Origin: a virus
Direction: 5' to 3' (one strand)
Length of the DNA: 41,013 nt
Virus genome (UHGV): UHGV-1836508
This document shows, one piece after another, positions 1 through 40,432 of this stretch (the first letter of the stretch is position 1; every line of letters begins with the position of its first letter). A program made the translations under genes and the position numbers. The notes beneath the pieces were generated by a model. The model worked only from the letters and a program-made list of their open reading frames with translations, was not told where the DNA came from and searched no databases.

Positions 1-958
1 CGTCTGACTCTCTGGCTACCTGAACAAGCAAGCCAGTAACACCAGAATAATCTACTGTGTAATAACGTTCACCTTCTTCACCTTCCGATCCGCTCGCACC
101 GTCCTGATATTTCATTGCGGAACCTACAACTTCTGGGATTGCTTCCAGAGCTTCCTGTGCAATGACACCAGCATAGGGCATACCGTTTTCTTTAAGCGTG
201 TATGTATAGCCGTTCATTTTACGGATGCGGTCGGTTGCATTATCGATCACCTGAATGTTGTCTTTCAGATCCCGGTCGGAATGCTGGTTAAATGCGGTGG
301 CATGACATGCACCATTAACGCTTAACATATAGGTGTTATCGGTATTTTTCTGCGCATAGAACATATAAGCGCCACCATCAACACCGACTTCATAAACAAC
401 AGGACGGCTGGAATTTCCCCATAATAACGTCGACACACCAGAATACGCCGTACCTTGCGTGTTTAGTGTCATGGTCGACCCGTGATTAGCATATTTGATC
501 TGCAATGAGTCTGTATTATCAAACTTAATAAGCGCGTTACTTCCCCGCACACCATACGACATGAGACAGTTCCCCATCTTAAGGTAACCATCACTGCCTG
601 GAAAAATTAAAGTTCCTCCGTAAAGATCACTAAAGTCCCAAAAGATACCTTTTGTCCCGTTATGTGTGACGATCCTCGTCATTGTATCTTTAGTACCATC
701 AATATTTTTTCTGGTATATATGTCACTATAAGCGTTTTCCGTTTCACCAGTCTTATTTGACAAATGCAGCTTACCGCTGAATATAGTTCCAGTTGTTGGC
801 AATGTTTTTTGATCATAGATTACATTGCAATAACCATTCCATGTTGTTTTATTGTCTACATAAGATTTTGTTGCGTAGTTTCCTTGATCGGTTTTTAATT
901 TGCTAACGTCGGATTTTAGCGTTTTGATATCATCAGGAATTACTGTCGATGTAGCCAT
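1..958 (-). CDS. tail fibre / receptor-binding protein, partial (N-terminal 319 codons; 3' end beyond window start) with intramolecular-chaperone (peptidase S74-type) motif
   Basis: Minus-strand frame is open from ATG at 958 (SD GGAAGGAAA just upstream, in-frame stop at 968-970) down to position 2 with no stop, checked triplet by triplet. Product contains SDRDLKDNIQVIDNATDRIRKMNGYTYTL...GVIAQEALEAIPEVV, the hallmark start of tail-fibre C-terminal intramolecular chaperone domains. Absent from the ORF track only because its stop lies outside the window. Confidence 0.7.
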   Translation of the reverse strand, partial: MATSTVIPDDIKTLKSDVSKLKTDQGNYATKSYVDNKTTWNGYCNVIYDQKTLPTTGTIFSGKLHLSNKTGETENAYSDIYTRKNIDGTKDTMTRIVTHNGTKGIFWDFSDLYGGTLIFPGSDGYLKMGNCLMSYGVRGSNALIKFDNTDSLQIKYANHGSTMTLNTQGTAYSGVSTLLWGNSSRPVVYEVGVDGGAYMFYAQKNTDNTYMLSVNGACHATAFNQHSDRDLKDNIQVIDNATDRIRKMNGYTYTLKENGMPYAGVIAQEALEAIPEVVGSAMKYQDGASGSEGEEGERYYTVDYSGVTGLLVQVARESD

Positions 959-967
959 TTTCCTTCC

Positions 968-1249
968 TCACATCCAGCCACGAAGTTGATGCTCAACAGC
1001 AACCGCGTATTCATCGAATAATGACGGTGTTTTCACATCATTAATGATGCGCACGTTTACAAAATATCCGTCTTCCTTAACACATACCGGTTCGCCATCT
1101 TCAGTCAGTTCTCCGGTTTCTTTGTACACGTTACCTATCACGTCAATAAGAATATCATCCTGCATCGACTCGTCATCATAATAGCCAGTGCTATCCATAA
1201 AGGCCGAAAAGTCGGCCCTGTCTTCAAATTTGAGTGTTAAATCTTTCAT
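968..1249 (-). CDS. hypothetical acidic 93-aa protein between the two fibre genes (possible fibre assembly factor)
   Basis: ATG at 1249 overlaps the upstream fibre stop (TAATG); stop at 968-970 sits 10 nt before the next fibre start. No recognisable motif. Confidence 0.5.
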   Translation of the reverse strand: MKDLTLKFEDRADFSAFMDSTGYYDDESMQDDILIDVIGNVYKETGELTEDGEPVCVKEDGYFVNVRIINDVKTPSLFDEYAVAVEHQLRGWM

Positions 1250-3615
1250 TAGATTGACTCCCCCATCTGAGCATCAGTCAATGCCTTGTGCCATATTCTG
1301 AAATTCCTGATATGACCAAATAAATGGCGTAACCCGGCTGTAGTCTGGCCTCCAATACGGATAATTGCGGAGTTCTGAATATATGACCATGTGGTTTTTG
1401 TTTCGCTGGATATACGCCCGTTACTTACTGAGCACGTAGACTGATCTGACTTTACACGCATCCCCATAACCATTTTTTCAAGCGATGCGTTTTCGTTTAC
1501 CCGTCTGTTAGCCAAACCTATATCACAATAAGGAAATCCGTCGTAATCTGTTGAACGACCGAAGCCAAGAATAATAGCCGCTCCGGTTTGATGACCGCCG
1601 GTATCAAAAACACGCGGTGCTGCATTTGGCGTTTTATACCAGTTCTTATGTACCTCACAAAGAACTGTAAAAGGAAGATTATAAAGGTTATTCTTGATTG
1701 GGACTGTCACCATATCGCTTGCGCGAGTGCTTGCAGTTATATCAGTTACAATAAATGACGAAGCACTTGATCCACCTTCCACTTGTGGAGTTGCGATATC
1801 CAGATAGTCTCCGGATACTGTGCTTGAACCTTTTACAGGAGCGTACTGAACCATCGCACCAATCATGCTCTCAGTATCCAGTGCATTAATTGTAGCCTGG
1901 AAGAAAATCCAACCAGTAGCCTCATCTTTTACTGCCTTTGAAATAATACGATTTGCAGCACCACCAGTTAGTTCAATTAAAAGTGTTGATAAATTGAGGT
2001 AAGCATCTCCCAAAAAAGTGTAAGTAGAACCATCATGATGTTCAAATCTTAAACGACACCTTATATTTTCAACATCACTTCTGACACGGCATGAAATGGT
2101 CACATATTTTTCATCACCTGTGACATCAAATCCTTTACTGCCAGAAACCGTTACGATACTAATCGCACTTGTTTGACCAATAAGAGTATCTTTTACAGTA
2201 AATCTACCATAAGTAAAATTAAAAGAATCCGTGGATATTTCTGTGAGTTCCAGATTGCTTGACTTATTCCATTTAGATGGATTTGTTGAATTAAGCAGAA
2301 GATTAGTTCTTTGCCCCTCAATAAGCAGGCCATCACGTTCAAATCGTGGCTCGTCAATGGCAGCCTCTGTCAGCACACCAGATTTATTAATATAGGTTGC
2401 TTTCGATGCGCGTTTAAACTTTACAACCTTATCGCCAGGCATCGTTATTTCATCATCACCAATAACAATCTTTTTATATGACGGCGAAAAGCCCGTAATC
2501 ATATCCAGTGAATCGTTAAACGGTATCCACACATCGGGAAGCGGCTGCAAAACTTGTTTATACGGCTCCGCAGCCTGGTTTGCATACTCTCTGGCTGCGT
2601 CTTCACTCGCTTTTGCAGCCGTCTGGCTTGCAGCGGATGCTTTCGCCGAGTTAGCCGCCGCAGTCTCGCTCGCCTTTGCGTTGGTTTCACTGGTTTTTGC
2701 AGCTTTTTGACTGTTGGCTGATGCAGTGGCAGAAGCAGCCGCCGCACTTGCAGAACCAGCTGCGGCACTCTCGCTTTGGGCTGCTGCATCCTGACTGCTT
2801 TTCGCCGCAGTTTCGCTGGCTTTAGCATTCGTTTCGCTGGTCTTCGCTGCCGTCTGGCTGGACTTTGCGTTAGTTTCACTCGTCTTCGCTGCTTTCTGGC
2901 TATTAGCCGCCGCAGTTGCTGATCCAGCTGCTGAAGTCGCAGAACCGGCTGCCGCACTCTCGCTTTCAGCTGCTGCATCCTGACTGCTTTTTGCTGCGGT
3001 AGCGGAGTTGGCGGCAGCACTCTGACTCGATTTTGCAGCTGCCTCGCTATTTTTCGCATTAGTTTCGCTGGTCTTTGAAGCTGTCTCACTCGCTTTTGAG
3101 TTAGTTTCTGATTTTTTGGCCGCTGTTGCGCTCGCTGCCGCCTCTTTAGCTTTTTGTGCAGCGGTGTTAATTATGGGAGTATTTTCTTTATACCATTCTA
3201 GGTTCTCATTGTGCTCATTAACGATCTGCGTAAGGGATTTTACGGTTAATTCCGTGCCATCTTCACGCTCAATTGTTATTTCATCCACAGCAGTCAGCCA
3301 ACTACGCATCATTTTTGAATCGGCTGACATGCGAGACATAAGCGCAGTAAAACGAGCACTAAATTGGGTCAAATCACCTTCATAGGTCGTAATTATTCTG
3401 CACGGAACATTTGTTTGGGTGCTGCCACCGTAGGCTTCAACAAGAGTTAACGAAGTGTCACTCTCGATTGATTTTATTTCATATAACTTATTATCGGGGC
3501 CAATCAATATCATACCTGGAAGGACGCCGTTCGCCGTCACTCCCCATGCTGTGCCTGTTCCCACTACAGTTTTATTTCCTTTAGTGAGATTTATTGTACC
3601 TTCCCTGTACCACAT
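1249..3615 (-). CDS. side tail fibre protein (lambda Stf-like) with Ala/Ser/Thr-rich repeats
   Basis: 788 aa directly downstream of J. Central region is built of repeated KTSETNAK / AAKSSQ / SATAA units, very like the alanine-rich repeats of lambda Stf-type fibres. ATG at 3613-3615. Confidence 0.8.
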   Translation of the reverse strand: MWYREGTINLTKGNKTVVGTGTAWGVTANGVLPGMILIGPDNKLYEIKSIESDTSLTLVEAYGGSTQTNVPCRIITTYEGDLTQFSARFTALMSRMSADSKMMRSWLTAVDEITIEREDGTELTVKSLTQIVNEHNENLEWYKENTPIINTAAQKAKEAAASATAAKKSETNSKASETASKTSETNAKNSEAAAKSSQSAAANSATAAKSSQDAAAESESAAAGSATSAAGSATAAANSQKAAKTSETNAKSSQTAAKTSETNAKASETAAKSSQDAAAQSESAAAGSASAAAASATASANSQKAAKTSETNAKASETAAANSAKASAASQTAAKASEDAAREYANQAAEPYKQVLQPLPDVWIPFNDSLDMITGFSPSYKKIVIGDDEITMPGDKVVKFKRASKATYINKSGVLTEAAIDEPRFERDGLLIEGQRTNLLLNSTNPSKWNKSSNLELTEISTDSFNFTYGRFTVKDTLIGQTSAISIVTVSGSKGFDVTGDEKYVTISCRVRSDVENIRCRLRFEHHDGSTYTFLGDAYLNLSTLLIELTGGAANRIISKAVKDEATGWIFFQATINALDTESMIGAMVQYAPVKGSSTVSGDYLDIATPQVEGGSSASSFIVTDITASTRASDMVTVPIKNNLYNLPFTVLCEVHKNWYKTPNAAPRVFDTGGHQTGAAIILGFGRSTDYDGFPYCDIGLANRRVNENASLEKMVMGMRVKSDQSTCSVSNGRISSETKTTWSYIQNSAIIRIGGQTTAGLRHLFGHIRNFRIWHKALTDAQMGESI
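2560..3140. repeat. in-frame tandem coding repeats (Ala/Ser/Thr-rich) inside the side tail fibre gene
   Basis: Reiterated gc(a/c)gc / agcgaaac / ctggct units at DNA level give repeated SETNAK-AAKSSQ peptide units; this also generates spurious ORFs in other frames. Confidence 0.7.
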
Positions 3616-3708
3616 TTATCCTTTGCTCCTAGATATGGTGGGCGTTCCATGCCCACCATTAAGTTAGTACCTACCTATTTTTACAGAAATGATTATTTTT
3701 TTCCACAA

Positions 3709-6700
3709 TCAAAGCCGACCAATCCTCACTCGAAGGACATTATTGTCATCATAAACGTCAATCCTCTGACCATTTATAACCAATCTCCCATTGCCGCCAC
3801 TATTGCCGTTGATCTCAAGCGTTCCATTTTTACCAAATCGCCATCCGGCTCGTCCGCTTACGAAGTTTGTTGATTGCAAGTCACCTACCTTTGCATTTGT
3901 GATAGTACCATCCTTAATATACGCACCATTCATGTATGCAACGCTGTTTTCGATAACAAATGGTGTGGTGATCTTTCCGTTAACTGAGTTAACTAGACCA
4001 AATCGATCTGCTTGCACCAAAAACTGGGAAAGCCCCGTGGTGTCAATTCCAAGCGCAATACCTGCGACATATTTTTGCCCACCACTTGTTGACGTTTCCA
4101 TCTTCAACGTCCACGCGGTTGAAACCTTTTTGTTAGTATCAGCAATAGCAGTTGCCTGCTCTTGAATTGTCGCTGTATTTCCATCAACTGATGCTTTTAA
4201 GGTGTCAATTCGTCCACTTAGAGCATTGTCGGCGTTTGTGCGCACAGTCGCCTCAGACGTAATCGCGGCATTAATATCTTTGCTCGTTTGCGCCTGTAGA
4301 TTAGTGATGCTAGAAGCCAAAGCCGAATCAGCGTCAGTTCTGGCTTTCGTCTCTTCTGCTACAGCCGCCTTAATATCTTTACCCGTCTGGCTCTTCAATG
4401 TGGTTATCTGTTGTGCTAAAGATTCATCAGCAGTTGCTCGGGCAATTTTTTCTTCAGATATAGCTGCACTAATATCGCCTTCAATTTTGGCTTGTAACGA
4501 TAGTATTTCTTTTGAAAGTGCTTCATCGGCACTAGCTCGTGCCTCTTGTTCACTCACAATTGCGGCAGAAATATCATCGTTAATCTTTGATTCAAGTTTG
4601 GTGATTCTGCTTGCAATAGCATTATCAGCATCTACACGAGCCGTTGTTTCTTCAGTGATTGAAGCTCTGATATCCTCATTTATTTCAGCGCGAATTTCCT
4701 CCATTTTCGTAGCCATTGCAGATATATCGTCTGCAAAAGCCTTCTGAGTTGTGGTGATCTTCGCATTACTCACCATCTGCTTGTGCTGATCTTCATCCTG
4801 ACGCAAAGCAAGATCGATGTTTGTTTTAGCCAATGCCTCAATGTTTGTCGTAACTTCGGCACTAGAACGTTCAACTTCAGCCACGGTTTTTTTCATTTCT
4901 TCAATGGTGGCTAAACTGCTATCTACAGTTGACTTCATCGCCTCGATTTCTTTCGCGTTTGCCAAGTCACCCTCAACTCGTGCTTCACGCTCCTCCGCAA
5001 TTAAAGCCGATGAATTGTCAAGTGCTGCATTTGCCGCCTCAACAGCTCCAGCTACAGCTTTACCCTGCTCTGATACAGTTTCCTGCAACTGAATTAAGGC
5101 AGCGTTAGAGTTTGCAACCTCCTTAAGTGCGTCTTCCACCTTGCTGACAGTACCGGAAACTTCCGTTTTAAGATTGTTTTGAGCTTCTTCAAGCCGCTGA
5201 TCGGCATCTGTAAATTTGTCATCGAGGATTTTCAGACTTTCTTCCATCTGTTGATAGATGGAATCCACCGCCTCCTGAGATACTTTTGAGTCGATTTCCT
5301 CAAGTAAAGTCTGGCCAAGTTCAGAAGACGTAATTTTGCCTGTCAGGAACGACAGCACATCGCGAGTCGTCGCCTCTGTACCCAAGTTTGAGTTCGGAGG
5401 ACTCAACATACCGCGCTTGTTTGACGCACGAACCCAGTAATACCACGTTTCGCTATCCCCAAGACCAGCATGTGTAAAGGTGGTGCTTGCAGACTCTGCG
5501 ATCAGTTTCGCTGTATCCAGATTGTTGGTCTGGGATGCGTAAACATTAATGTGATCAAGGTCTACCGAATCTGGATTAACCCAATTCAGTATCACATTAC
5601 GATAGTCTCCAACGGCTGTTAATGACGTTGGGGCATCTGGCGGTGTCATTGTGCCCAGCACCTGATAAACGGTACTGATAATCTCTGTTTTTTTACCGTT
5701 GAATGAAACCGCATACAGCTGGAAGTCGTAGCGTCCATTCTCCGCGACATTAACGATTTCGTATTGCTCTTCGGTTACACGCGCCGATTGCCAGTTCGAT
5801 ACATTGTTTGCATCAGAACGTCGCCAACTGATCCAATACTCTGGAGATTTCCCTTCCCATGTTGCAGTCAGTTTTACTGACAGGTTGCCCGGGCTTGAGA
5901 GATAAGTCCCTTCAGTGATTTGCAAATTAGACGGCTTGGAATAAGTCGGGTCCAATACCGTCGTATTCTGCGGGATAAGCGTTGCACCATTGTCGATCGC
6001 CTCATATTTAGACGGATTGTTCTCAACAGCGGTGATGTCAAAGCTACCCGGCGTTTCCCCCTGTGCTATGTTAACAATGCGAACGCGCATAGGTTCGAGG
6101 TCTGGTTCTGTAATAGTCCAGACGCCGTTCAAAACAGGCGTTTCAGCCGAAGACAGGGCTTTTGAAAACGTAACTTTTGTTATATTTTCGCCAGTTTCAA
6201 GAACATCGCGTTCAACGATTTTGCCTTCCTGATTCAGTATTCGAATAAAGCAGCCGCCTTTGGCTAACGACACAGGCGCATCGAGTGTGACGCTGTTTTT
6301 GGTAAACGCCACAATTCGACCTGAGTTACGTTTGCCTGCGCGATATTTGTTCTGAATCAGAACGGTTTCACCAGGCATCAAAAATGACGCGTCTAAGCCG
6401 GCAGTAAATGTAATTACATCCGACTCCATTCTGGCGGTATATAAAAGCCACAAACCAACTCGGTGAGCCTGCCCTCGGCTTGTACAGCCAAATGCCACGA
6501 CTTCTGTCTTACGCTCACCATAACGGCGCATTGCGTCCTGATCTTCAACGTACTCGATGTTTTGCTTATAACCGTCCTCCTTGTTGTTGTAGGTTACGAG
6601 CGCAACGGATGGGCGATCTTTACGCGCAGAACCTTTATAGGTAAACAATCCATCTTTGACGTTAGAGTTGGTAAACATCATTACCGGATCTGACGGGCTA

Positions 6701-7869
6701 TCCTGCATGATGTTAACCATGCCACCAGCCCAAAACACCATGCCGCGGAATGCTCCAGCAATATCCTGAATTAGTCGGTATGCGTCCTGTCGACTGGTAA
6801 TCTGCGTATTGATTGCAAAACGTTTCTCTTTGCCACCAAAGCCATCATCAACCTCTTCGTCACAATATCGACCGATCTGGTACAGCTGGCCGAGGTCAAT
6901 CATGGACTCTGATACAAATTGGCCAAGCCCATATCGTTCATTCGTTAACAGGTCGAAAAGAATCCAGGCTGGATTGGATGAAGACAGCAGCTTAAACGTA
7001 CCGTCCCATACTCCAACGTAAGTGTTACTGGATTCGTTATAGTTTGATGGCACACGAATTTTTAGGCCACGCACCAGATAAGAGCGAGAAGGCATAGTGC
7101 TGCCGAACTGCTCAGAATTAACCTTCAACCCCACCAGCACAGAGTTTGGGTAGTTCATCGGTGTATCGACAATCTCACCTATTGAATCCACCCATGTATC
7201 GTTATAGAGATACTGGCTGCTGTTATCATCGGTAATACGGACTACACGAACCTTGTATGCGCGTCCAGGCTTAGGCAGCTTCAGCTCATAGCTACGGTAA
7301 TAAACACCTGTCTTCTTTGCTGTTAGCTTAATGCCAACGCTTTTTTCACCTTCTGCGACCACATCTACAAATGTTGAGTCGCCATTTGCTATCTGGAACT
7401 TGTACTCAACGCTTGTACCGTTCGTGTCACCAGTTTTTTTATCTATGCTTCGCAAAGAAGGAAACTTCATGATGACACGAACCCGATCAGCTTCATCGTT
7501 ATCGATTGAAACCGTTACATAATGTGTTTTTTTTAACTGGATATTGACGGATTTAGGCGTTTCAACGAAATCAAAGCCAGACATTGGAGTCTGGTCTTGC
7601 GAACCGTCGCGAAAATCCCATGTGATTCCGCTGAAGTTGGAGGAACCGTCTTCATTTACAATCGGCAGATCGTCGATAAAAATAGATCTTGCGCCATTTA
7701 CTAAGCCGCCAATTACCCCTTCCCCAAGAAGATCGAGGATAGCGGCCATTGCACGAGAATTTACGGTATCGTCGGCTTCAACCGGTGTACGGCTGGAGCT
7801 TTTGCTGCTTTTTTTACCACCCGCACCGGCAATAAACAGCGGTAGCTTTTTCTTCTTGAACTGTTCCAT
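3709..7869 (-). CDS. central tail fibre / host specificity protein (lambda gpJ-like)
   Basis: About 1386 aa, position after I-K-L-M, gpJ-like N-terminal and C-terminal regions (…AYIKDGTITNAKVGDLQSTNFVSGRAGWRFGKNGTLEINGN…). Track start at 7875 is TTG; first ATG with SD is at 7869. Confidence 0.9.
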   Translation of the reverse strand: MEQFKKKKLPLFIAGAGGKKSSKSSSRTPVEADDTVNSRAMAAILDLLGEGVIGGLVNGARSIFIDDLPIVNEDGSSNFSGITWDFRDGSQDQTPMSGFDFVETPKSVNIQLKKTHYVTVSIDNDEADRVRVIMKFPSLRSIDKKTGDTNGTSVEYKFQIANGDSTFVDVVAEGEKSVGIKLTAKKTGVYYRSYELKLPKPGRAYKVRVVRITDDNSSQYLYNDTWVDSIGEIVDTPMNYPNSVLVGLKVNSEQFGSTMPSRSYLVRGLKIRVPSNYNESSNTYVGVWDGTFKLLSSSNPAWILFDLLTNERYGLGQFVSESMIDLGQLYQIGRYCDEEVDDGFGGKEKRFAINTQITSRQDAYRLIQDIAGAFRGMVFWAGGMVNIMQDSPSDPVMMFTNSNVKDGLFTYKGSARKDRPSVALVTYNNKEDGYKQNIEYVEDQDAMRRYGERKTEVVAFGCTSRGQAHRVGLWLLYTARMESDVITFTAGLDASFLMPGETVLIQNKYRAGKRNSGRIVAFTKNSVTLDAPVSLAKGGCFIRILNQEGKIVERDVLETGENITKVTFSKALSSAETPVLNGVWTITEPDLEPMRVRIVNIAQGETPGSFDITAVENNPSKYEAIDNGATLIPQNTTVLDPTYSKPSNLQITEGTYLSSPGNLSVKLTATWEGKSPEYWISWRRSDANNVSNWQSARVTEEQYEIVNVAENGRYDFQLYAVSFNGKKTEIISTVYQVLGTMTPPDAPTSLTAVGDYRNVILNWVNPDSVDLDHINVYASQTNNLDTAKLIAESASTTFTHAGLGDSETWYYWVRASNKRGMLSPPNSNLGTEATTRDVLSFLTGKITSSELGQTLLEEIDSKVSQEAVDSIYQQMEESLKILDDKFTDADQRLEEAQNNLKTEVSGTVSKVEDALKEVANSNAALIQLQETVSEQGKAVAGAVEAANAALDNSSALIAEEREARVEGDLANAKEIEAMKSTVDSSLATIEEMKKTVAEVERSSAEVTTNIEALAKTNIDLALRQDEDQHKQMVSNAKITTTQKAFADDISAMATKMEEIRAEINEDIRASITEETTARVDADNAIASRITKLESKINDDISAAIVSEQEARASADEALSKEILSLQAKIEGDISAAISEEKIARATADESLAQQITTLKSQTGKDIKAAVAEETKARTDADSALASSITNLQAQTSKDINAAITSEATVRTNADNALSGRIDTLKASVDGNTATIQEQATAIADTNKKVSTAWTLKMETSTSGGQKYVAGIALGIDTTGLSQFLVQADRFGLVNSVNGKITTPFVIENSVAYMNGAYIKDGTITNAKVGDLQSTNFVSGRAGWRFGKNGTLEINGNSGGNGRLVINGQRIDVYDDNNVLRVRIGRL
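4230..4700. repeat. five tandem 93-nt (31-aa) repeats in the coiled-coil part of the J-like gene
   Basis: Peptide units DI(S/K/N/R)A(A/S)I…AR…AD…L…I…L recur five times (DISAAIVSEQEARASADEALSKEILSLQAKIEG and variants). Confidence 0.6.
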
Positions 7870-7886
7870 GTTCAAAAAATCCTTGT

Positions 7887-8480
7887 TTACATTAGCTGGT
7901 CAATCGTGATTGAAGAACTCACAACCTGTGAGCCAACCAGAATTTCCTCGCCATAGATAAGTTGTACTGGGTTGCCCTGGTTTTCTGTATTTTGAGGGCC
8001 GTCGAAATAATAAGAGTTCGAGTTATCTGCCTGTCTCACACTTTCGTTAGTGGCTTGCGGCGATATTATTTGTGATATGCCGCCCATCATCAGTGACAAA
8101 CCGAGAGGTGCTAAAGCAGGCATCACTACCGCCGATACAACCAACAAAGCGGCCCCTACTACCGTCTGAAACCACCCAAAAGCAGATCCACCGCTTCCTC
8201 GCGGAACAGGTGTAATGCGGATTTTGGCAATGTTGTCAGACTGCCCCATCATCTGATATTCACTTTCGTCAACAGACCACTTGTGGCCCTGTTTATTGGT
8301 GATCTGGATGTGGTAACGGTCATAGGTTTTGATATTGCGCTTCATCCATGCTTTAAACCCAGGCTTGTTGGCCTCAATTAAATCCAGAGCCTGTTTTGTA
8401 TTGCGCACCTTTAGATGCCAGTGGCGGCCAAAATGTTTGGCCATAGGGCCGCCAAGCTGCACATGAACTAACTCAGACAC
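7887..8480 (-). CDS. tail assembly protein (lambda gpI-like)
   Basis: 197 aa between K and J homologues; hydrophobic Gly/Ala-rich C-terminal segment as in gpI. GTG start with SD AAGGGAG. Confidence 0.7.
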   Translation of the reverse strand: MSELVHVQLGGPMAKHFGRHWHLKVRNTKQALDLIEANKPGFKAWMKRNIKTYDRYHIQITNKQGHKWSVDESEYQMMGQSDNIAKIRITPVPRGSGGSAFGWFQTVVGAALLVVSAVVMPALAPLGLSLMMGGISQIISPQATNESVRQADNSNSYYFDGPQNTENQGNPVQLIYGEEILVGSQVVSSSITIDQLM

Positions 8481-28875: not shown

Positions 28876-30435
28876 ATGACTGTTCGGATTGTATCTAACG
28901 CAGTAAATGCGCTTATTTCTGGCGCAGATGACAAGGTAAAGCAACTGGTGCAGCAAATGTTGAGCTACGAAGTCGAGACTGGCGACTGGAAGGGCACAAG
29001 CACGATGTTCAACTGGAGTAAAAACTCGTTCCCTGCTGGCTTTGCCAAGCCTGTAGCGGCGAACTTGAACAAGGCGGGCATCAAATGTGTTCATATCCGC
29101 AAAGACAAAGCCCCGGCGCTTGGTAAACCAAATCCGGCGGTTAACCCATTCCCATACAATCCTGATTATGCGTATCAGGATCAGACTGTGGAAACACTGG
29201 TTCGAGAGGGAATGATGATTGCGCAGATCGCTACTGGTGGCGGGAAATCTAACGTTGCCTGCAAAGCAGCTGCACGTATCGGTCGAATGACATTATTTTT
29301 AACAACCCGCTCTGTTCTGATGTTTCAAATGGCCGAAAACTTCCAGAGATCCATCGACTACCGCGCCGAAAATGGCGAACCGTGGTTAAAAGACCAAAAG
29401 GTTGGAGTCATTGGCTCGGGTGAGTTCCAGGTATCACGACATATCAACGTCGCTACAGTTCAAACTCTTGCAAGTTTCCTCGAAGAACCACCACGCGATG
29501 CAACACCAGATAAAAAGAGCTACCACCTCAAACGTCGGGAGTTGGTGAAACGCTTCCTTTCAAGTGTGTCTCTGCTTATTCTGGAAGAAGCGCATGAGTC
29601 TTCAGGTTCTAATTTCTATGACATTGCCAGATTATGTGTGAACGCAGACTATCGTCTGGCGCTTACAGCCACGCCGTTCATGAAGGATTCGACGGAAGCC
29701 AACATGCGCCTGATGGCGGTGGCCGGGCGAATTGAAATTAAAGTCACAGAAAAGTACCTGATTGATCGAGGCATTCTGGCAAAGCCGTACTTCCTTTATC
29801 ATAAAGTTGCCTACAAGCCAGACGAGGCCAGAATCAAGGCCGAACTTGCCAACAAACACCTCAATTTTAGAGTTGGTATGAGCACCGCCTACCAAAAGGC
29901 TTATCAGTTGGGGATCGTGTATAATTTGGGACGTAACGAGGCCATAGTGCGCGAGGCATTGCTTTATAAGCAACATTCACTCAACTGCATGACTCTGGTT
30001 CGTCTTAAACGCCACGGGCAAATCCTGATGGAGATGATGAAGGAGTCAGGTCTTAAAGTTGATTTCATCTATGGGGAATCTAACCAGACGACAAGGCAAG
30101 CAAAGCTGAATAGTTTAGCGTCTGGTGAAATAGATGTTTTAATAGGCTCGACTATTCTGGATGTCGGTGTTGATGTACCAAGCGTTGGTGCGGTCATTCT
30201 GGCTGGTGGTGGAAAAGCAGAAGTTGAAATGAGGCAGCGTGTCGGTCGTGGCTTACGAGCCAAAAAAAATCAGGCAAACGTGTGTTTTATCACTGATTTC
30301 ATTGACATTAGCAACAAATACCTGTTGTCTCACTCTTATGAGCGAAAACACATCATCGACACCACACCTGGCTTTGCAGAAGGTGTATTGCCTATTGATG
30401 GAGCATTCGATTTTGGAGTTCTGAAACGAGATTAG
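28876..30435 (+). CDS. superfamily 2 (DEAD/DEAH-type) helicase
   Basis: Motif I IATGGGKS, motif II LLILEEAHE, motif III LTATPF, motifs V/VI …DVLIGSTILDVGVDVPS…QRVGRGLR; strong SD TAAGGAAAGAGG. Confidence 0.85.
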   Translation: MTVRIVSNAVNALISGADDKVKQLVQQMLSYEVETGDWKGTSTMFNWSKNSFPAGFAKPVAANLNKAGIKCVHIRKDKAPALGKPNPAVNPFPYNPDYAYQDQTVETLVREGMMIAQIATGGGKSNVACKAAARIGRMTLFLTTRSVLMFQMAENFQRSIDYRAENGEPWLKDQKVGVIGSGEFQVSRHINVATVQTLASFLEEPPRDATPDKKSYHLKRRELVKRFLSSVSLLILEEAHESSGSNFYDIARLCVNADYRLALTATPFMKDSTEANMRLMAVAGRIEIKVTEKYLIDRGILAKPYFLYHKVAYKPDEARIKAELANKHLNFRVGMSTAYQKAYQLGIVYNLGRNEAIVREALLYKQHSLNCMTLVRLKRHGQILMEMMKESGLKVDFIYGESNQTTRQAKLNSLASGEIDVLIGSTILDVGVDVPSVGAVILAGGGKAEVEMRQRVGRGLRAKKNQANVCFITDFIDISNKYLLSHSYERKHIIDTTPGFAEGVLPIDGAFDFGVLKRD

Positions 30436-30437
30436 TT

Positions 30438-30716
30438 ATGAGCGAAAAGAAAACAACTTATTGCCAGGTGGCATTGTCTGATAAGGCCAATGAAAAACTT
30501 GGAAAATTCCAAATAAAACTCAAAGAGAAAAAAATCAAGATGTCTAAGGCTGAAGTTATCAATGCCATTCTGGAGACGATGACTATGGCTGAATTTGACA
30601 AAGTCACATCTGCCGTTGGGGTTTCCGCTAAGACGCGTGAGAAAATCATGCGCATCTATGAAAACTCCAATATGACAAAAAAAGATCTAGAGGAAATACT
30701 GAGCAGGTTGCCGTAA
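30438..30716 (+). CDS. hypothetical 92-aa protein (Lys-rich)
   Basis: ATG 2 nt after the helicase stop, so likely coupled; no recognisable motif. Confidence 0.5.
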   Translation: MSEKKTTYCQVALSDKANEKLGKFQIKLKEKKIKMSKAEVINAILETMTMAEFDKVTSAVGVSAKTREKIMRIYENSNMTKKDLEEILSRLP

Positions 30717-30748
30717 CATTTCATATTTACCCCCTATCTACTAATTCT

Positions 30749-30784
30749 ATGATGTGCTCACTTGTTAGAAAGGAGCACATCATG
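30749..30784 (+). other. 11-bp perfect stem-loop sequestering the SD and start codon of the next gene
   Basis: ATGATGTGCTC (30749-30759) pairs with GAGCACATCAT (30773-30783); loop holds AGAAAG of the SD; the ATG at 30782 is in the stem. Confidence 0.55.
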
Positions 30785-31348
30785 AGTTGGTTAAAAGAAT
30801 TATCATTTGTTGACACCACTGGCGCTAAGAAAAATCATTCTTTCTGGAAAGTCAGCGATCCTTCTGATTTTCTTGTTGGTGCTAATGCTGCTTTTGAATT
30901 GCTTAACTTTTATCAACGTTATCCAGAAATGAAACACAGTCCACTCCTGTACAGAATAACAAACGATATGAATAGGTCTGGTTTATTATCAAGTGAGTCA
31001 GCGAAAGGCTTTTTTAGCAAAATTACGCCTCACATATCATTCGATGCAACAAACGAAATTGATTATCTATCCACGAAATCTCAAGAACAATTATCTGTAC
31101 CACCTGAGAAAAAAGAAAGACGAATTGCCAGCATTGAAAATATATCGAAAGAGCTTCGCACAACAACGTTGAGGCTGCTGAACTTTCTTACGCTGCTTAA
31201 TTGGATAGATGATCAAACATTGATTCCATCAACAGATGCGTTGGATAACAGAGTCCTTAGGCTGAACAAAAAATCGCAATTTGGTTTTGTGTTCACCAAA
31301 AAAGGTGAAGATTTAATCAAAAGAAAATATAGATTATTGAATGATTAA
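30782..31348 (+). CDS. hypothetical 188-aa protein (AT-rich accessory gene)
   Basis: SD AAAGGAG 7 nt upstream of the ATG at 30782; the track start at 30749 lacks an SD. Confidence 0.55.
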   Translation: MSWLKELSFVDTTGAKKNHSFWKVSDPSDFLVGANAAFELLNFYQRYPEMKHSPLLYRITNDMNRSGLLSSESAKGFFSKITPHISFDATNEIDYLSTKSQEQLSVPPEKKERRIASIENISKELRTTTLRLLNFLTLLNWIDDQTLIPSTDALDNRVLRLNKKSQFGFVFTKKGEDLIKRKYRLLND

Positions 31349-31354
31349 TAGTCT

Positions 31355-31384
31355 ACATGCAGGTGTATGAGAGCACCTGCATGT
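31355..31384 (+). terminator. stem-loop terminator after the 188-aa gene
   Basis: ACATGCAGGTG-tatgagag-CACCTGCATGT directly after the stop; T-run is interrupted. Confidence 0.45.
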
Positions 31385-31637
31385 GACATTCATCACATTT
31401 TTGAATGTATATACCTTCGGCTGAAAAAGATCTTGATAGGCTAAATGATATTTGTAGGCTTCGCCTCCGAAGAAATTCGGAGGATATATGCGACAATTTA
31501 TAAAAACGTGTGACCTAAGAAATATAGTAGATGATATTGCATGTGATGAAATTAGCAAAAAAGAGAAGAACAAAAACGCCAATTAACGCTATCTACCTAT
31601 AAATCTGAAGAGTTCAATAGGATGCATATCTGAAACA

Positions 31638-31673
31638 CGCCCTCGACAATACCAAAAAGATTTGTCGAGGGCG
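31638..31673. terminator. bidirectional hairpin terminator between convergent accessory genes
   Basis: CGCCCTCGACAA-taccaaaaagatt-TTGTCGAGGGCG, 12-bp perfect stem. Confidence 0.55.
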
Positions 31674-31732
31674 TCGGGCTTTCCCTATGTCTGAACGATT
31701 AAATTTTACAGCAATTAAATATTTTGTATATG

Positions 31733-32533
31733 TTATTCTTCTGGTGGCACGACAAAATCATCGAGCTTATTCTTTTCGTCTCGAAGCAACTTGATTTCTT
31801 CTTCTGTTATACATTTGTCATAATCTGTTTGTTCAGAATGGCACAGTGTAACCGCGAATGGATAGCCGGTATAGGACAGTCCCCTAACAGGTTCTAGTTC
31901 ACCGTTGTCTTTTTTCCTAAATTTGTAAAAGTCAGGAGTGTCATAATTGGTGACGCTAACAAGAGCATATTTATCATTTTCTCTTGCATACACTTCACTA
32001 ACACCTCTCGATTCGCCCAACTCTCTACTCACATATGTCGAATCACTTGCTGCATCAAACACAGCCTGACCTAATGGAGTTTTTTTTAAATCATCTATTT
32101 TCTCTTTTTCCTTCCTGATTTTAGATTCGTTTTCCAGATAAAGTTTCACACCGTTTTCTTTACATGCTAGATTTTGGCGTTCAAAACGTAATCGTTCTCT
32201 TGCCGAGTTGGCACTTTTATCCATTGTAACGAATACAATCGGGTTACGTTCACGAACATCAAAGATGTGCGCATTGAATGCGGTCGCACCTGTATAGGCG
32301 TTCAAGACGTTTTTGCCATTCACCTCTCCACATACCATATATGAATAGCTATTTTCACCTAACTGAATAGCTCGCATATTCGTGAACCGACCAGCATCAG
32401 GATCTAGCAGTGTAGAGCGAATATCCTTTTCAACTAGATCTATGGCTCGCTCTTCATCAGAATCACAACCTGTTAATAGTAAAGCCGCTATTAACAATGC
32501 TAATGAGTATTTTTTATTCACCCCATTCTTCAT
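31733..32533 (-). CDS. lipoprotein (signal peptide with lipobox LTGC), stand-alone accessory gene
   Basis: N-terminus MKNGVNKKYSLALLIAALLLTGCDSD; own divergent promoter region and downstream hairpin; AT-rich. Confidence 0.7.
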   Translation of the reverse strand: MKNGVNKKYSLALLIAALLLTGCDSDEERAIDLVEKDIRSTLLDPDAGRFTNMRAIQLGENSYSYMVCGEVNGKNVLNAYTGATAFNAHIFDVRERNPIVFVTMDKSANSARERLRFERQNLACKENGVKLYLENESKIRKEKEKIDDLKKTPLGQAVFDAASDSTYVSRELGESRGVSEVYARENDKYALVSVTNYDTPDFYKFRKKDNGELEPVRGLSYTGYPFAVTLCHSEQTDYDKCITEEEIKLLRDEKNKLDDFVVPPEE

Positions 32534-32635
32534 GAAACTTATTCCATAATCAATTTTTGGTGGAATGTACGGTTAGTCTGTCTACGCATCATAGAGATGT
32601 ATATAATGACCAAAAAAGACTTAAAAAGGTAGACT

Positions 32636-33157
32636 ATGGTTAAAGACATCACCTACGGCATACCGGCTGAAGTCTGGCCGCGAGACTACGAACATGCTGA
32701 AAACATACTTATGTTCTGGCGGAAGAACAACATTCCTGTAAGAGTCACGCTTGAAGACGGTCAGGTGTTTTGCATGTACGTTCAGGGGACAATGCCTTCC
32801 CGCAATAAGCTAGATTTATGCCCGCTTCCATATGATAAAGAAAATCGTATAAGACTCCCACTTGAGCGCATTAGCACAATTGAATCAGGTGTAATCGATG
32901 GCATTGCTCGCGAGTTCAAAGGTAGGCTAACAATACATCCAGACTATGTTGACAATCAGCCATCACGCCGTGACTTTTTTGCGATATGTCGCAAGGCTTA
33001 TCAAAACGACCAATCTATAAGGGTCTACATGACAGACGGTCGTGAAATAGAAGGGGTGTCAAGAGGCGTTGATGCTTGCCAGGTCACTCTTAAATTAGAA
33101 GACGGCAGAAAAATACTTGTTTTCTTCGATTGGGTTGAACGAATCCTTCCATTTTAA
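32636..33157 (+). CDS. hypothetical protein with two tandem Rof/YaeO-like repeats (possible Rho modulator)
   Basis: Internal duplication …VRVTLEDGQVFCMYVQG…RIRLPLERISTIE / …QVTLKLEDGRKILVFFDWVERI resembling the LTLELKDGE…RLDKITSF pattern of Rof; TATAAT at 32602-32607 upstream. Confidence 0.35.
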   Translation: MVKDITYGIPAEVWPRDYEHAENILMFWRKNNIPVRVTLEDGQVFCMYVQGTMPSRNKLDLCPLPYDKENRIRLPLERISTIESGVIDGIAREFKGRLTIHPDYVDNQPSRRDFFAICRKAYQNDQSIRVYMTDGREIEGVSRGVDACQVTLKLEDGRKILVFFDWVERILPF

Positions 33158-33168
33158 ATCTATAAGGG

Positions 33169-33198
33169 TAATAACCGGCTAAGCCCGGTTATTATTTT
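33169..33198 (+). terminator. intrinsic terminator
   Basis: TAATAACCGG-ctaagc-CCGGTTATTA followed by TTTT. Confidence 0.7.
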
Positions 33199-33339
33199 AC
33201 ATGCCATTCATTTAAAACTCTTTCAATGTCACTCTGTATAAATATATAAGGTTAAAAGCCCGAATTGATTATTTATTTAGGGAACACCTTCGACGATCTC
33301 GCTTTTATTTCTAGGACTTTCATCCCTGCAGAAAATTTA

Positions 33340-33367
33340 AAAAAAATACTTGCAATCTTTTTTCACG
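33340..33367 (+). promoter_or_regulatory. sigma70-type promoter (TTGCAA - 16 bp - GATAAT) with upstream A-tract
   Basis: -35 at 33340-33345, -10 at 33362-33367, A-rich block 33321-33338; flanked by inverted repeat ttcgacgatctcgctttt / ctcgtcgaaagcgag. Confidence 0.55.
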
Positions 33368-33452
33368 TATCGATAATTGAACTCGTCGAAAGCGAGCTAG
33401 CTAACGACAGTAAAAAATAAATTCATTTTAATTTTTCGTAAGGATGTCCATC

Positions 33453-34103
33453 ATGACTAACATTATCATTTCTAAAAAGTCCATCATTGAAGCTGCTGCC
33501 ATTGTATCCGACGAGCTGCGCGAAAAAGCAGATCTGGCAACTCAAACATATAACGAACATTATAAAAATGGTACGCACACAAAAGCAGACAAAGCAAATA
33601 TGCAAGCTGCGACCACCAAACTTGCTTACTTCATCAACAACGTCGTAAACGCAGTAGAAGACGAAAAATTGTGCTCTGTTTTCTACTATGCGATCAAAGC
33701 AAGCAAACAAGCGCCAGAAGTATTTTTCCGTGATGCAATGACTAATAGTTATTCTCTGGAAAAACTGGTTTATCTGGTTAAATCCATTAAAGCTGGAAAG
33801 TGTGTTTATTCCGTCGCTGATATGTCCGGATCTCGTGTATTCGCATTAATCGATATGATTAACGACGAGATCGAGACGTTCACAAATGGCGCTGTTTTCG
33901 ATTTAATGAATGAAGCGAAAAAAGCCAACGAAATAAAATTAGACGCAGGATACACTCAAGCCAACCAGCTTATCAATCTTTGCGAACGTCTTGGACTTGT
34001 TGAGAAAGTCAAAGGAATGGGAAGCGCAAAAGCTGGTACGCAGCAATATCGCTTTATTAAAAATGATTTCTATAACTATCTGGCTGATGCTTTCAAAGCG
34101 TAA
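33453..34103 (+). CDS. hypothetical 216-aa protein
   Basis: SD AAGGA before the ATG at 33453; own promoter and terminator; no motif recognised. Confidence 0.55.
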   Translation: MTNIIISKKSIIEAAAIVSDELREKADLATQTYNEHYKNGTHTKADKANMQAATTKLAYFINNVVNAVEDEKLCSVFYYAIKASKQAPEVFFRDAMTNSYSLEKLVYLVKSIKAGKCVYSVADMSGSRVFALIDMINDEIETFTNGAVFDLMNEAKKANEIKLDAGYTQANQLINLCERLGLVEKVKGMGSAKAGTQQYRFIKNDFYNYLADAFKA

Positions 34104-38699: not shown

Positions 38700-39690
38700 G
38701 GGGGACGAAAATTATGGCTTGAATTTATACGAAGAAAGTAGCGATACCCCTCCTTCCCTTCCCACTTATACCTCCCACGAATTTTCTCTCTTATGTGGGC
38801 ATAAACCTTCCCTCTGATAACGCTCTATACGGCGAGTATTCCTTTGGGTGAAATGGGTGGTTTGTTCTTTCTACCGGCATATGTGGTTTCGTTCTTCTTG
38901 AGGTGGTTCTTCTCTGTGTTTTCGTCTGGGTTGTTCTCGTCGTTTTGGTGACTGTTCTTCTCCGTGTATGGAGTAATGGCAGGTGGGCGATTGCTTTCGT
39001 TATTGTGTTTGAGTTGTTTGTCTGGAGTGCGTGAAGGGCTTTTGTAGTTATTCGTGTATTGGGTAATGGCGTTTCCCGTGATTGTTATGTTTCGTGTCTT
39101 TTGGGATTGAGAGAAACCTTGCGGTTACAGGCTTCGTTGGGGTTTCAGTGATTCTGGTGTTTCTTCGCTGTTTGGGTAATGGCGTGTCGTGGGTATCGCG
39201 CGTATGGAAGTTTCGAATTGCCTGTGAAAGTTAGGTTGGTTGTCCGGTAGCCTGGGAAGAAGAGGTGGGTCTTTTCGGTAGCCTGCCATAAAGAGGTTGG
39301 TTGTTTTTGGTAATGGCATATGTGTTATTTAGTTGTTTTGTTATACCTGAAAATAAGTTGTTTATATGGTTGTGTAACGCAACGGGAGCGATTTTGAGCG
39401 TGTGTTTTTGTTGGTAGTGTGTTGAGTCGTCTGTGGTGAAATTTGGACGCTGTGGCGCTATCTGCTGCGTGGGATTACGGGTATAAGAAGTGATGTGTGA
39501 AAACGTCAATTTTTTAGACCAAATCGGGTGAAAGCGTTGACATTTCGTTGATCTGTTGTTCAGTTGTTTTCTTATTGGTATAAACAACTATAACCTATTG
39601 ATATTTAAGGATGTGATTGCAGGTATAGAATGGGGGTAGTGGCGATCAACGGATTCTTATAGAAAAGAATCAAATTGTGACCGCCATTAT
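38700..39690. other. ~1-kb GT-rich (plus strand) non-coding tract with dispersed GGTAATGGC repeats
   Basis: No plus-strand ORF of 60 aa or more; minus-strand ORFs are low-complexity with TTG start; GGTAATGGC-like motif at about 38965, 39063, 39175 and 39309. Confidence 0.6.
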
Positions 39691-39697
39691 CAATGTT

Positions 39698-40432
39698 TTA
39701 CTTAGTTTTGTTTAGCAGAGAGAGAATTTCATCACTAATTTCACTCGCCTGTTTGATAGCCAATGCAGTTACCTCTTCTATGGTTGGTGACTGTTGATGC
39801 TCATGTTTGGTTTCAGTTATGACAATGTGTTCTTCACCTGAATTTGCGCATAGTGCCGCATTGACTATAAGGTTTGAGTAAGAATTTAGCAGAGCACTGT
39901 TGATAAACGCTTTCACGGTATTACTGTCTGCACCAAATACATCTTTTCTGACCGCTTCAGCCTCACAGCGAACCCCTGCAGCAACATCGTGAAGAACATG
40001 TATGGCCTTGGGGCTTGTTTGTTCACAGTACTCAATCATTATTGTCGAATTGTTCTGTTCAACAAATGATCTGATGCCTGACGATTCACCCATAGCATCG
40101 AAGGCAGCGTGACCCGCACTAGTAGAGATATCTTCATAGAGTTCTTCATCGCTATCTTTTTCTTCAGGTGTCGAGGTGTCTTCATCGTCGTAATAGATAT
40201 TGCCTTTAATCAGTGTTTTGGACACTTGATATAAACAATAAGAGACAAGATTTAAGCATTGGATTTTAGCTGTATTGTCCTTTGTCGCCTCGCTCTTCAG
40301 TTCTTTCGCTTCTTCAGTAAGGCTGTTGATAAGACTTTGTATTTTTTCCAACGCGTTAGGTGCACACTCAGCGTTGTCCATAAAGAATTTATAACCAGTC
40401 CCAGGGATTTCTAAACTTTTCAACTTTTTCAT
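39698..40432 (-). CDS. hypothetical 244-aa protein
   Basis: ATG start with SD-like AGGAT upstream; acidic central region; no motif recognised. Confidence 0.55.
   Translation of the reverse strand: MKKLKSLEIPGTGYKFFMDNAECAPNALEKIQSLINSLTEEAKELKSEATKDNTAKIQCLNLVSYCLYQVSKTLIKGNIYYDDEDTSTPEEKDSDEELYEDISTSAGHAAFDAMGESSGIRSFVEQNNSTIMIEYCEQTSPKAIHVLHDVAAGVRCEAEAVRKDVFGADSNTVKAFINSALLNSYSNLIVNAALCANSGEEHIVITETKHEHQQSPTIEEVTALAIKQASEISDEILSLLNKTK

Follow-up and report, generated by a model that had tools for sequence, protein, structure and literature searches.

Gene content of the fibre locus

The 41,013-nucleotide stretch of DNA analysed here (virus genome UHGV-1836508; hereafter the window) derives from an SSU5-like phage-plasmid. 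The ORF list confirmed every open reading frame claimed earlier, all on the minus strand and at unchanged coordinates, and the three consecutive genes at the left end of the window each encoded a protein that matched an existing PHROG family. These genes, their parts and the adjoining tail gene are as follows.

3709..7875, minus strand: J-like central tail fibre or tip attachment protein, 1388 aa (Pfam; given as context)
1249..3615, minus strand: putative proximal side-fibre protein, 788 aa (ORF; phrog_1419 matched over the full length)
3166..3615, minus strand: N-terminal anchor domain of the SSU5-lineage type, aa 1-150 of the 788-aa protein (conservation)
2581..3165, minus strand: heptad Ala/Ser-rich shaft, aa 151-345, with degenerate repeats in multiples of 21 nt (composition and lag analysis)
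2326..2580, minus strand: conserved linker, aa 346-430, including the QPLPDVWIPFNDSLD motif (conservation)
1720..2325, minus strand: swappable carbohydrate-binding-module (CBM)-like β-sandwich cassette, aa 431-632
1252..1719, minus strand: conserved C-terminal module, aa 633-788, ending in RHLFGHIRNFRIWHKALTDAQMGESI (conservation)
968..1249, minus strand: 93-aa acidic accessory protein, phrog_1361 (ORF and family match)
1..958, minus strand: putative short distal fibre ending in an S74 intramolecular chaperone (ORF; phrog_4563; PF13884)
914..958, minus strand: N-terminal 15 residues of the distal fibre, MATSTVIPDDIKTLK, putative docking peptide (invariance)
281..913, minus strand: mature part of the distal fibre, aa 16-226, presumed receptor-binding tip (PHROG matches)
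1..280, minus strand: S74 chaperone domain from Ser227 (codon 278-280), with Lys232 (codon 263-265), cut by the window edge (Pfam)

The 1388-aa J-like protein contained the Pfam domains FNIII-A_GpJ, Phage-tail_3 and fn3, together with Phage_Tail_Tip (aa 1236-1370). The preliminary description had counted at least three receptor-recognition modules in this region, and a count of three is reasonable given the J tip domain (PF09327), the CBM-like cassette in the Stf-like protein and the tip of the distal fibre. A promoter and terminator scan of positions 1-4000 returned hits at chance level only, and neither tRNA genes nor Rfam families were found in the window.

Structure of the putative proximal fibre protein of 788 aa

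The 788-aa ORF opens with an ATG start codon preceded by AGGAG. A Pfam search of the product gave no match, PF08400 included, while similarity extended over aa 155-788 for Gp22 of phage IrisVonRoten (55% identity over a stretch that takes in both the lectin-like region and the terminal ...RNFRIWHK...) and over aa 167-788 for the 'stf homolog' of Tritos (81% identity). The N-terminus (MWYREGTINL) is of the SSU5 type, and the anchor domain that it begins is shared with the SSU5-like PhiR41_1 and pAVS0747-B but not with Tritos; among PDB sequences, this domain weakly matched a distal tail protein (E 2.4e-4) and, with E 2.4e-3, the N-terminal end of the F2-pyocin side fibre. A length difference between 788 and 771 aa was considered as repeat variation and rejected, as the annotation of the plasmid relatives uses an internal GTG start.

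The shaft (38% Ala, 20% Ser) showed a self-identity of 0.51 at a lag of 7 residues and 0.63 at a lag of 63, bearing out the alanine-rich repeats first noticed in this protein, and it aligned to the shaft of T5 pb1 (PDB 8hqz). The tandem DNA repeats said to encode it do exist but are degenerate: Tandem Repeats Finder gave short arrays of only 2.0-2.4 copies (periods 12, 21 and 42 nt), so that clean tandem repeats were dropped in favour of degenerate heptad-coded ones, and the longest direct repeat pair measured 156 nt (79% identity, 189 nt spacing). The length variation predicted for such a shaft was also found, with relatives differing by 42, 63 and 105 aa, all of which are multiples of 21 aa. 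As the repeat block aligned without repeat-region indels in four independent records (pAVS0747-B, p108_MLI108-3, Tritos and PhiR41_1), the repeats are not assembly artefacts.

The comparison with lambda Stf holds for only part of the protein. The Ala/Ser-rich heptad shaft, which is homologous to those of Stf and T5 pb1, the AAKTSETNA-type repeat and the position directly after J are all Stf-like, and the distal two-thirds of the protein recur in the lambdoid phage Tritos under the annotation 'lambda stf homolog'. However, the 788-aa protein lacks PF08400 and has a C-terminus other than that of lambda, and no gene for the Tfa partner (PF02413) lies downstream, where the unrelated 93-aa protein is found instead.

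Within the C-terminal 440 residues, the linker was almost invariant in 25 homologues and across phage lineages. The β-sandwich cassette, which has a CBM-like fold, matched the GTA head-spike-fibre profile NF048003 above its curated cut-off. The terminal module was retained in lambdoid, T1-like, T5-like and rV5-like fibres; Laminin_G_3 (PF13385) remained sub-threshold on the C-terminal 180 aa (18.4 bits vs a cut-off of 27.6, E 0.0025, last strand motif only), and AF2 modelling of the monomer gave low confidence for aa 345-440 and 614-788. This C-terminal module was joined to a variety of N-terminal anchors, comprising PF08400 (in many homologues), PF12571 with PF03406, and Pfam-less types including that of SSU5, as would be expected of a portable distal unit.

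The 93-aa acidic protein

The 93-aa acidic protein reported previously is present (pI 4.06; 22 Asp+Glu vs 8 Lys+Arg), and its start codon shares bases with the stop codon of Stf (TAATG), a stop/start overlap between proximal fibre and small protein that recurred in all lineages checked. Pfam and NCBIfam searches gave no match, the AF2 model (pLDDT 83.7) had no informative structural neighbour, and a BFVD structural search returned uncharacterised phage proteins only. Just 80 cluster representatives were retrieved in an exhaustive profile search; three long profile matches were considered as domain fusions and rejected, being PKD-repeat/TPR proteins that share a short Y-x-V-x-V-R-x-x-D-D-like motif. 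The small protein is common to lambdoid, T1-like, T5-like, 9g-like, rV5-like and SSU5-like phages and was found in 179 phage records, with a tail-fibre gene adjoining it in nearly all of the 60 records listed.

In every locus with a readable upstream ORF, the small protein followed a conserved ...RNFR[IL]WHK... fibre end, and it did so in 46 prophage loci that have no distal fibre. Because it always trails the proximal C-terminal module, even where the distal fibre is missing, its conserved position suggests that it is probably an assembly factor of that module, to which it belongs, and not a spacer between two fibres. It could instead be a structural adaptor, bridging the end of the proximal fibre and the N-terminus of the distal one, and its small size, acidity and confident fold would suit such a part, as would its place between both fibre genes in every examined lineage that has the distal fibre. 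We consider this role rather unlikely, however, in view of the same length and conservation being retained in the 46 prophage loci and in rV5-like phages, where it is followed by a gene other than an S74 fibre, and of the lack of co-variation with the distal allele (93-aa proteins at ≥90% identity precede both 346-aa and 234-aa alleles). Returning to an assembly role, we would suggest, tentatively and at a little short of even chances, that phrog_1361 stands for a class of tail-fibre accessory factors not described before, acting as a dedicated chaperone or a retained cap for the CBM-bearing proximal C-terminal module and replacing both Tfa/gp38-type chaperones and intramolecular S74 domains.

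The putative distal S74 fibre

The distal fibre gene starts at position 958 and runs out of the left window end, with 319 of its 346 codons inside. The completion of this gene that had been called for was achieved through a relative, the 27 codons outside the window being supplied by locus L057 (99.7% identical DNA), whose protein of 346 aa ends in DRITALEEENAELRQRLSVIEAALASK, a stretch that lies beyond the window edge. Further to the left, a phrog_1443 membrane-protein gene would be expected. The match to phrog_4563 covered residues 1-319 of 346. The chaperone signature SDRDLKDNI…GVIAQE proved to be real: Pfam Peptidase_S74 (PF13884) matched aa 227-278 with positions 1-57 of its 58-position profile (E 5.7e-14; 52.6 bits vs a cut-off of 22), Ser227 and Lys232 stand in context five residues apart (HS227-D-R-D-L-K232), which is the catalytic spacing, and the domain aligned to the chaperone domain of S16 gp37 (PDB 6f45; SSDRRIKKDI). 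By analogy, the chaperone would be released by autoproteolysis.

The first 15 residues (M-x-T-x-T-x-I-P-x-D-I-x-x-L-K) were invariant in four phage lineages, the remainder of the distal fibres being 26-30% identical, and this motif was found in all IMG/VR loci whose downstream sequence could be read. Recombination breakpoints lay exactly behind these 15 codons, and similarity to plasmids bearing another distal allele started at window position 915. No recognisable anchor domain was found in the distal protein, and a tblastn search for single-chain fusions with its first 40 residues returned stand-alone genes only.

Short distal alleles of 225-234 aa also occur, in which the mature part would be reduced to about 115 aa. 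Such a small remainder would fit a protein that is not a fibre at all but a trans-acting chaperone for the 788-aa protein, which has no chaperone domain of its own, and the names in the KarlJaspers and ESCO3 database entries, 'putative lateral tail fiber chaperone' and 'endosialidase chaperone', point the same way. Nevertheless, S74 acts in cis on the upstream polypeptide in every characterised case (PMC4690869), the 226 mature residues of the window allele share homology with the tips of long single-chain fibres (families phrog_5668 and phrog_6578, whose C-terminal ends were matched by distal residues 87-319 and 146-319), and both the proximal fibre and the small protein remain intact in loci that lack this gene, all of which makes a trans-acting chaperone highly improbable.

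A probable composite side fibre

Beyond the gene structure, domain matches, conservation, co-occurrence and mosaic breakpoints, which were observed directly, we consider it rather probable that the products of the three genes make up a single composite lateral (side) tail fibre, of a type that recurs among enterobacterial phages. The 788-aa protein would be the proximal subunit, fixed to the SSU5-type tail by its lineage-specific N-terminal domain and continuing in a trimeric heptad Ala/Ser coiled-coil shaft, with its C-terminal 440 residues bearing an exchangeable CBM-like β-sandwich, probably binding a surface glycan, and the conserved terminal module. The 93-aa protein, translationally coupled to this subunit, would be the dedicated partner of the terminal module, most likely as an assembly factor, and may stay bound. 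The 346-aa protein would be a short distal fibre that docks on the proximal subunit through its N-terminal 15 residues, an attachment that we infer from the invariance of these residues and the breakpoints immediately behind them. Its trimerisation would be aided by the C-terminal S74 chaperone, and autoproteolysis by Ser227/Lys232 between His226 and Ser227 would then free the chaperone and expose a second glycan-binding tip.

The preliminary description had instead read the locus as two consecutive fibres, in which case the 788-aa and 346-aa proteins would attach to the tail separately and form separate receptor-binding structures. The genes are indeed separate, each product has a plausible binding domain, and separate long and short fibres are known from some phages (PMC11990801). 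However, the distal protein has no recognisable anchor, and its invariant N-terminus accompanies the C-terminal module of the proximal fibre in phages with unrelated tails (lambda-like, T1-like, T5-like and SSU5-like); as a tail-specific attachment site would not stay conserved across such lineages, two independent fibres appear quite improbable. That architecture is probably wrong, and the evidence favours docking of the S74 protein on the 788-aa protein.

Two further observations touch on the composite reading. The distal mature part and S74 domain together resemble the C-terminal ends of single-chain fibres, which counts in its favour, and the mature part in the 233-234-aa alleles, at about 115 aa, would be very small for a receptor-binding fibre, which counts against it.

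Comparison with known fibre systems

A close parallel was found in the T5-like phage IrisVonRoten (Bas32), where the products of bas32_0022, _0023 and _0024 (about 790 aa, 92 aa and an S74 fibre) are encoded with identical gene order and spacing, so that all three window products have homologues in the same order in the Gp22/Gp24-type fibre. Gp23 was 38% identical to the 93-aa protein, and Gp24 shares with the window distal fibre both the N-terminal motif and the C-terminal S74 chaperone. Gp24 has been modelled as attached to the proximal fibre Gp22, which has an extra lectin-like domain (PMC11990801); the small protein is not discussed in that paper. The two systems differ in their anchors, which are of the T5 pb1 type in IrisVonRoten and the SSU5 type in the window, and in the distal fibre, which in IrisVonRoten has 574 aa and an extra Gp12-like domain, giving a T shape, whereas that of the window has 346 aa and a single tip. 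A literature search returned nothing usable on virion proteomics of a homologue or on the PhiR phage series.

A branched two-protein fibre has been proven genetically in DT57C (PMC4728585, PMC10713586). As in the composite proposed here, only the first protein of the LtfA/LtfB pair of DT57C and DT571/2 is tail-anchored and the second attaches through the first (PMC4728585, PMC10713586); S74 chaperones with a predicted cleavage site are likewise present, and the LtfA/LtfB fibre binds O-antigen. However, S74 is found on both DT57C proteins but on the distal protein only in the window, docking relies on other elements (LtfB resembles phiEco32 gp15 in its N-terminal 45 aa), and a small intervening protein is not described for LtfA/LtfB. 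The chaperone itself resembles those of T5 pb1 and the K1F endosialidase, with PF13884 starting S-D-x-R-x-K, Ser and Lys five residues apart (cf. pb1 Ser1264/Lys1269; PMC4690869) and a putative coiled-coil tail after S74 in the full-length relative, although in pb1 and K1F it terminates a fibre or spike longer than 1000 aa, whereas in the window it is borne by a stand-alone 346-aa protein.

Occurrence and exchange of the cassette

The gene order of the three-gene cassette recurs in lambdoid, T1-like and T5-like phages, including Gp22-23-24 of IrisVonRoten, and its distal part was present in 1071 of 5426 complete E. coli genomes. Nearly identical fibre parts (98.9% identity) are common to the SSU5-like window and chromosomal lambdoid prophages, and fibre parts of the window were 92% identical to those of a 110-kb Salmonella phage. 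The locus combines sequence of at least three origins, and its mosaic breakpoints are precise, lying where the heptad shaft begins, around the CBM-like cassette and behind codon 15 of the distal fibre gene.

The three-gene cassette is a common, heavily exchanged host-range module and no new kind of system. It offers a concrete case of host-range modules moving among temperate, plasmid-borne and other phages, and the breakpoints provide ready-made junctions for fibre engineering. For the phage-plasmid itself, the cassette would set which surface glycans can be used at first contact, and would therefore contribute to its host range.

Organisation and mosaic structure of the fibre locus

The fibre genes lie at the positions given in the preliminary description, on the minus strand, and follow the gene of the J-like protein.

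Genes of the fibre locus
3709-7875, minus strand: J-like protein, 1388 aa (domains FNIII-A_GpJ, Phage-tail_3, fn3 and Phage_Tail_Tip)
1249-3615, minus strand: 788-aa ORF, proximal fibre
968-1249, minus strand: 93-aa ORF, small protein
958 and off the left end of the window after 319 codons, minus strand: distal fibre ORF
Just past the window's left edge, as located in relatives: phrog_1443 protein (closest plasmid relative, L139, 3591-3875; related locus L001, 5582-5875; prophage locus L057, from ~6370)

The phrog_1443 protein (hydrophobic, 94–98 aa, MDITPFLHALCAVA..., function unknown, no Pfam match) forms the end of the locus in both SSU5-like plasmids and lambdoid prophages, whether the distal fibre is present or not. 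The J-like protein carries, before its Phage_Tail_Tip domain, about five consecutive 33–34-aa repeats (...ARxxADxALxxxIxxLxxxxxxDIxAAIxxE..., aa ~1000–1170, window ~4366–4878), and this repeat stretch (window 4410–5290) is also the region of greatest divergence among SSU5-like relatives. Between the J and 788-aa genes, 20 nt upstream of the proximal fibre start codon, is a perfect 9-bp inverted repeat (ATGGTGGGC-(7 nt)-GCCCACCAT, 3635–3659, minus strand) that has no following T-run and was not flagged in the terminator scan.

Window positions 8000–30000 showed 98–99% identity with CMS-2020a and Cyrano (SSU5-like phage-plasmids of ~108 kb), 95% with PhiR41_1 and 81% with Salmonella phage SSU5. 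Left of 3128 the window has nothing in common with CMS-2020a, to which it is elsewhere 98% identical, and the lambdoid phage Tritos is collinear with window 1–3130 at 84% identity. The closest same-lineage record, pAVS0747-B, is 98% identical over 2288–5400, diverged over 1726–2287, which encodes a carbohydrate-binding-module (CBM)-like cassette, and 93% identical over 1–1725. Salmonella phage FGS017 (110 kb) showed 92% identity to the window's cassette region. The points of exchange fall on the borders of domains: the shaft start, the edges of the CBM-like cassette and, in the distal fibre, codon 15. Elsewhere, GC content falls to 0.36–0.41 at 30001–34000, lower than in the rest of the window, and GC skew reaches +0.29 at 39001–40000, unlike the remaining window; in L139, a DUF1778/GNAT toxin-antitoxin-like gene pair and a ParA-type ATPase gene (1160–1958 and 173–841) lie a few kb past the fibre locus.

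The proximal fibre

Domains of the proximal fibre
aa 1-150: lineage-specific anchor, common to SSU5-like relatives, resembling the F2-pyocin side fibre N-terminus
aa 151-345: shaft, aligning with lambda Stf-type and T5 pb1 shafts
aa 346-430: nearly invariant linker
aa 431-632: CBM-like cassette (NCBIfam NF048003, GTA head-spike-fibre domain, E 3.6e-15, above cut-off)
aa 633-788: conserved terminal module, ending ...RNFRIWHKALTDAQMGESI; Laminin_G_3 match sub-threshold only

The CBM-like cassette is the sole confidently modelled part of the protein (AlphaFold2 monomer; pLDDT means of ten-residue blocks 64–93, mostly >77). The label 'Stf-like' given previously holds for the shaft only, since a PF08400 domain and a Tfa gene are both missing. 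The reported tandem DNA repeats correspond at the protein level to a strict heptad periodicity (38% Ala and 20% Ser in aa 151–345), but the DNA repeats themselves are degenerate, with only 2–2.4 copies at periods of 12, 21 and 42 nt (Tandem Repeats Finder) and a longest repeat pair of 156 nt (79% identity, 189 nt spacing). An origin of the repeats as assembly artefacts was rejected, given that independent records show no indels when aligned across the repeat region. In relatives with a lambda-type anchor, the last shaft residue is 255, 297, 360 or 423, and these steps in multiples of 21 aa indicate that repeat-mediated length change does occur within the fibre family, in line with the proneness to length variation proposed earlier. 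In PhiR41_1 (L003 4914–7278) the gene is divided between two ORFs of 597 and 155 aa; the small protein comes next, and after it no S74 distal fibre.

The distal fibre and its chaperone domain

The chaperone signature noted in the left-hand fibre is a Pfam Peptidase_S74 domain (aa 227–278, E 5.7e-14, above cut-off) beginning S227-D-R-D-L-K232, so that the catalytic Ser-Lys context is present, with Ser227 and Lys232 spaced as are Ser1264 and Lys1269 of T5 pb1, which is cleaved just before Ser1264 (PMC4690869). From prophage locus L057, which matches the 958 nt at 99.7% identity, the full length is 346 aa and the missing C-terminal tail reads DRITALEEENAELRQRLSVIEAALASK. Other prophage copies (L009, L010, L012, L052 and L083, IMG/VR) are truncated or frameshifted, at 90–299 aa versus 346, which suggests that the gene is decaying in resident prophages. 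An alternative 234-aa allele (related locus L140, 3340–4044) has its S74 domain at aa 116–172, and its predicted mature part is therefore only ~115 residues. The match of this allele to phrog_3299 (profile length 1385 aa) lies at the extreme C-terminus of that family, and the family's N-terminus matches the window's proximal fibre.

A probable composite fibre rather than two fibres

Although two consecutive fibres had been described, one composite fibre is more likely. The distal fibre starts with 15 residues (M-x-T-x-T-x-I-P-x-D-I-x-x-L-K) that do not vary between SSU5-like, lambdoid, T1-like and T5-like phages, across which the remainder is only 26–30% identical, and in SSU5-like plasmids with the other distal allele, similarity to the window starts exactly at the breakpoint at 915, just past codon 15. 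In each of the 80 IMG/VR loci with readable downstream sequence, the small protein is followed by a gene beginning MATSTVIP[DGE]DI[KT]T[LQ]K, of which there are two alleles (346 aa or 233–234 aa). Conservation of this peptide across four unrelated tail types is better accounted for if it docks to the proximal module, which is transferred with it, than if it docks to tail parts particular to each lineage. In addition, long single-chain fibre families match the mature part and the S74 domain at their C-terminal ends. The earlier proposal of three recognition modules was judged reasonable.

IrisVonRoten (T5-like) has the same gene order (796 aa, 92 aa and a 574-aa S74 fibre; proximal fibre 55% and small protein 38% identical), and its S74 fibre has been modelled as attached to the proximal fibre, the latter with an extra lectin-like domain (PMC11990801); in DT57C, branched two-protein fibres are established genetically (PMC4728585, PMC10713586). 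Window 1–1249 DNA is present in 1071 of 5426 complete E. coli genomes, with copies up to 98.9% identical in chromosomal prophages. The three proteins all belong to existing PHROG families (phrog_1419, proximal fibre; phrog_1361, small protein, function unknown; phrog_4563, distal fibre). As a module, the three-gene cassette is widespread and has been described in part; the combination of alleles seen here is new.

The small acidic protein

The protein between the fibre genes is acidic (pI 4.06), as described. Homologues occur in 179 phage records, including lambdoid, T1-like, Dhillonvirus, 9g-like, T5-like and rV5-like phages, with a tail-fibre gene under or adjoining the match in nearly all of the 60 matches listed; an exhaustive profile search gave only 80 cluster representatives, nearly all stand-alone proteins of 85–110 aa. 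Several features lead us to read it as a putative partner of the terminal module of the proximal fibre: the stop codon of the proximal fibre overlaps its start (TAATG), with similar overlaps in other lineages; wherever the upstream ORF was readable, that ORF has the conserved end ...RNFR[IL]WHK..., including in 46 prophage loci of the PhiR41_1 type and one rV5-like locus in which no S74 fibre comes after the small protein; and neither the distal allele nor the CBM-like cassette co-varies with it. Among structural neighbours of its predicted fold (pLDDT 83.7), none was informative. Most likely it would be an assembly factor replacing the absent Tfa or intramolecular chaperone, or it may be a retained adaptor.
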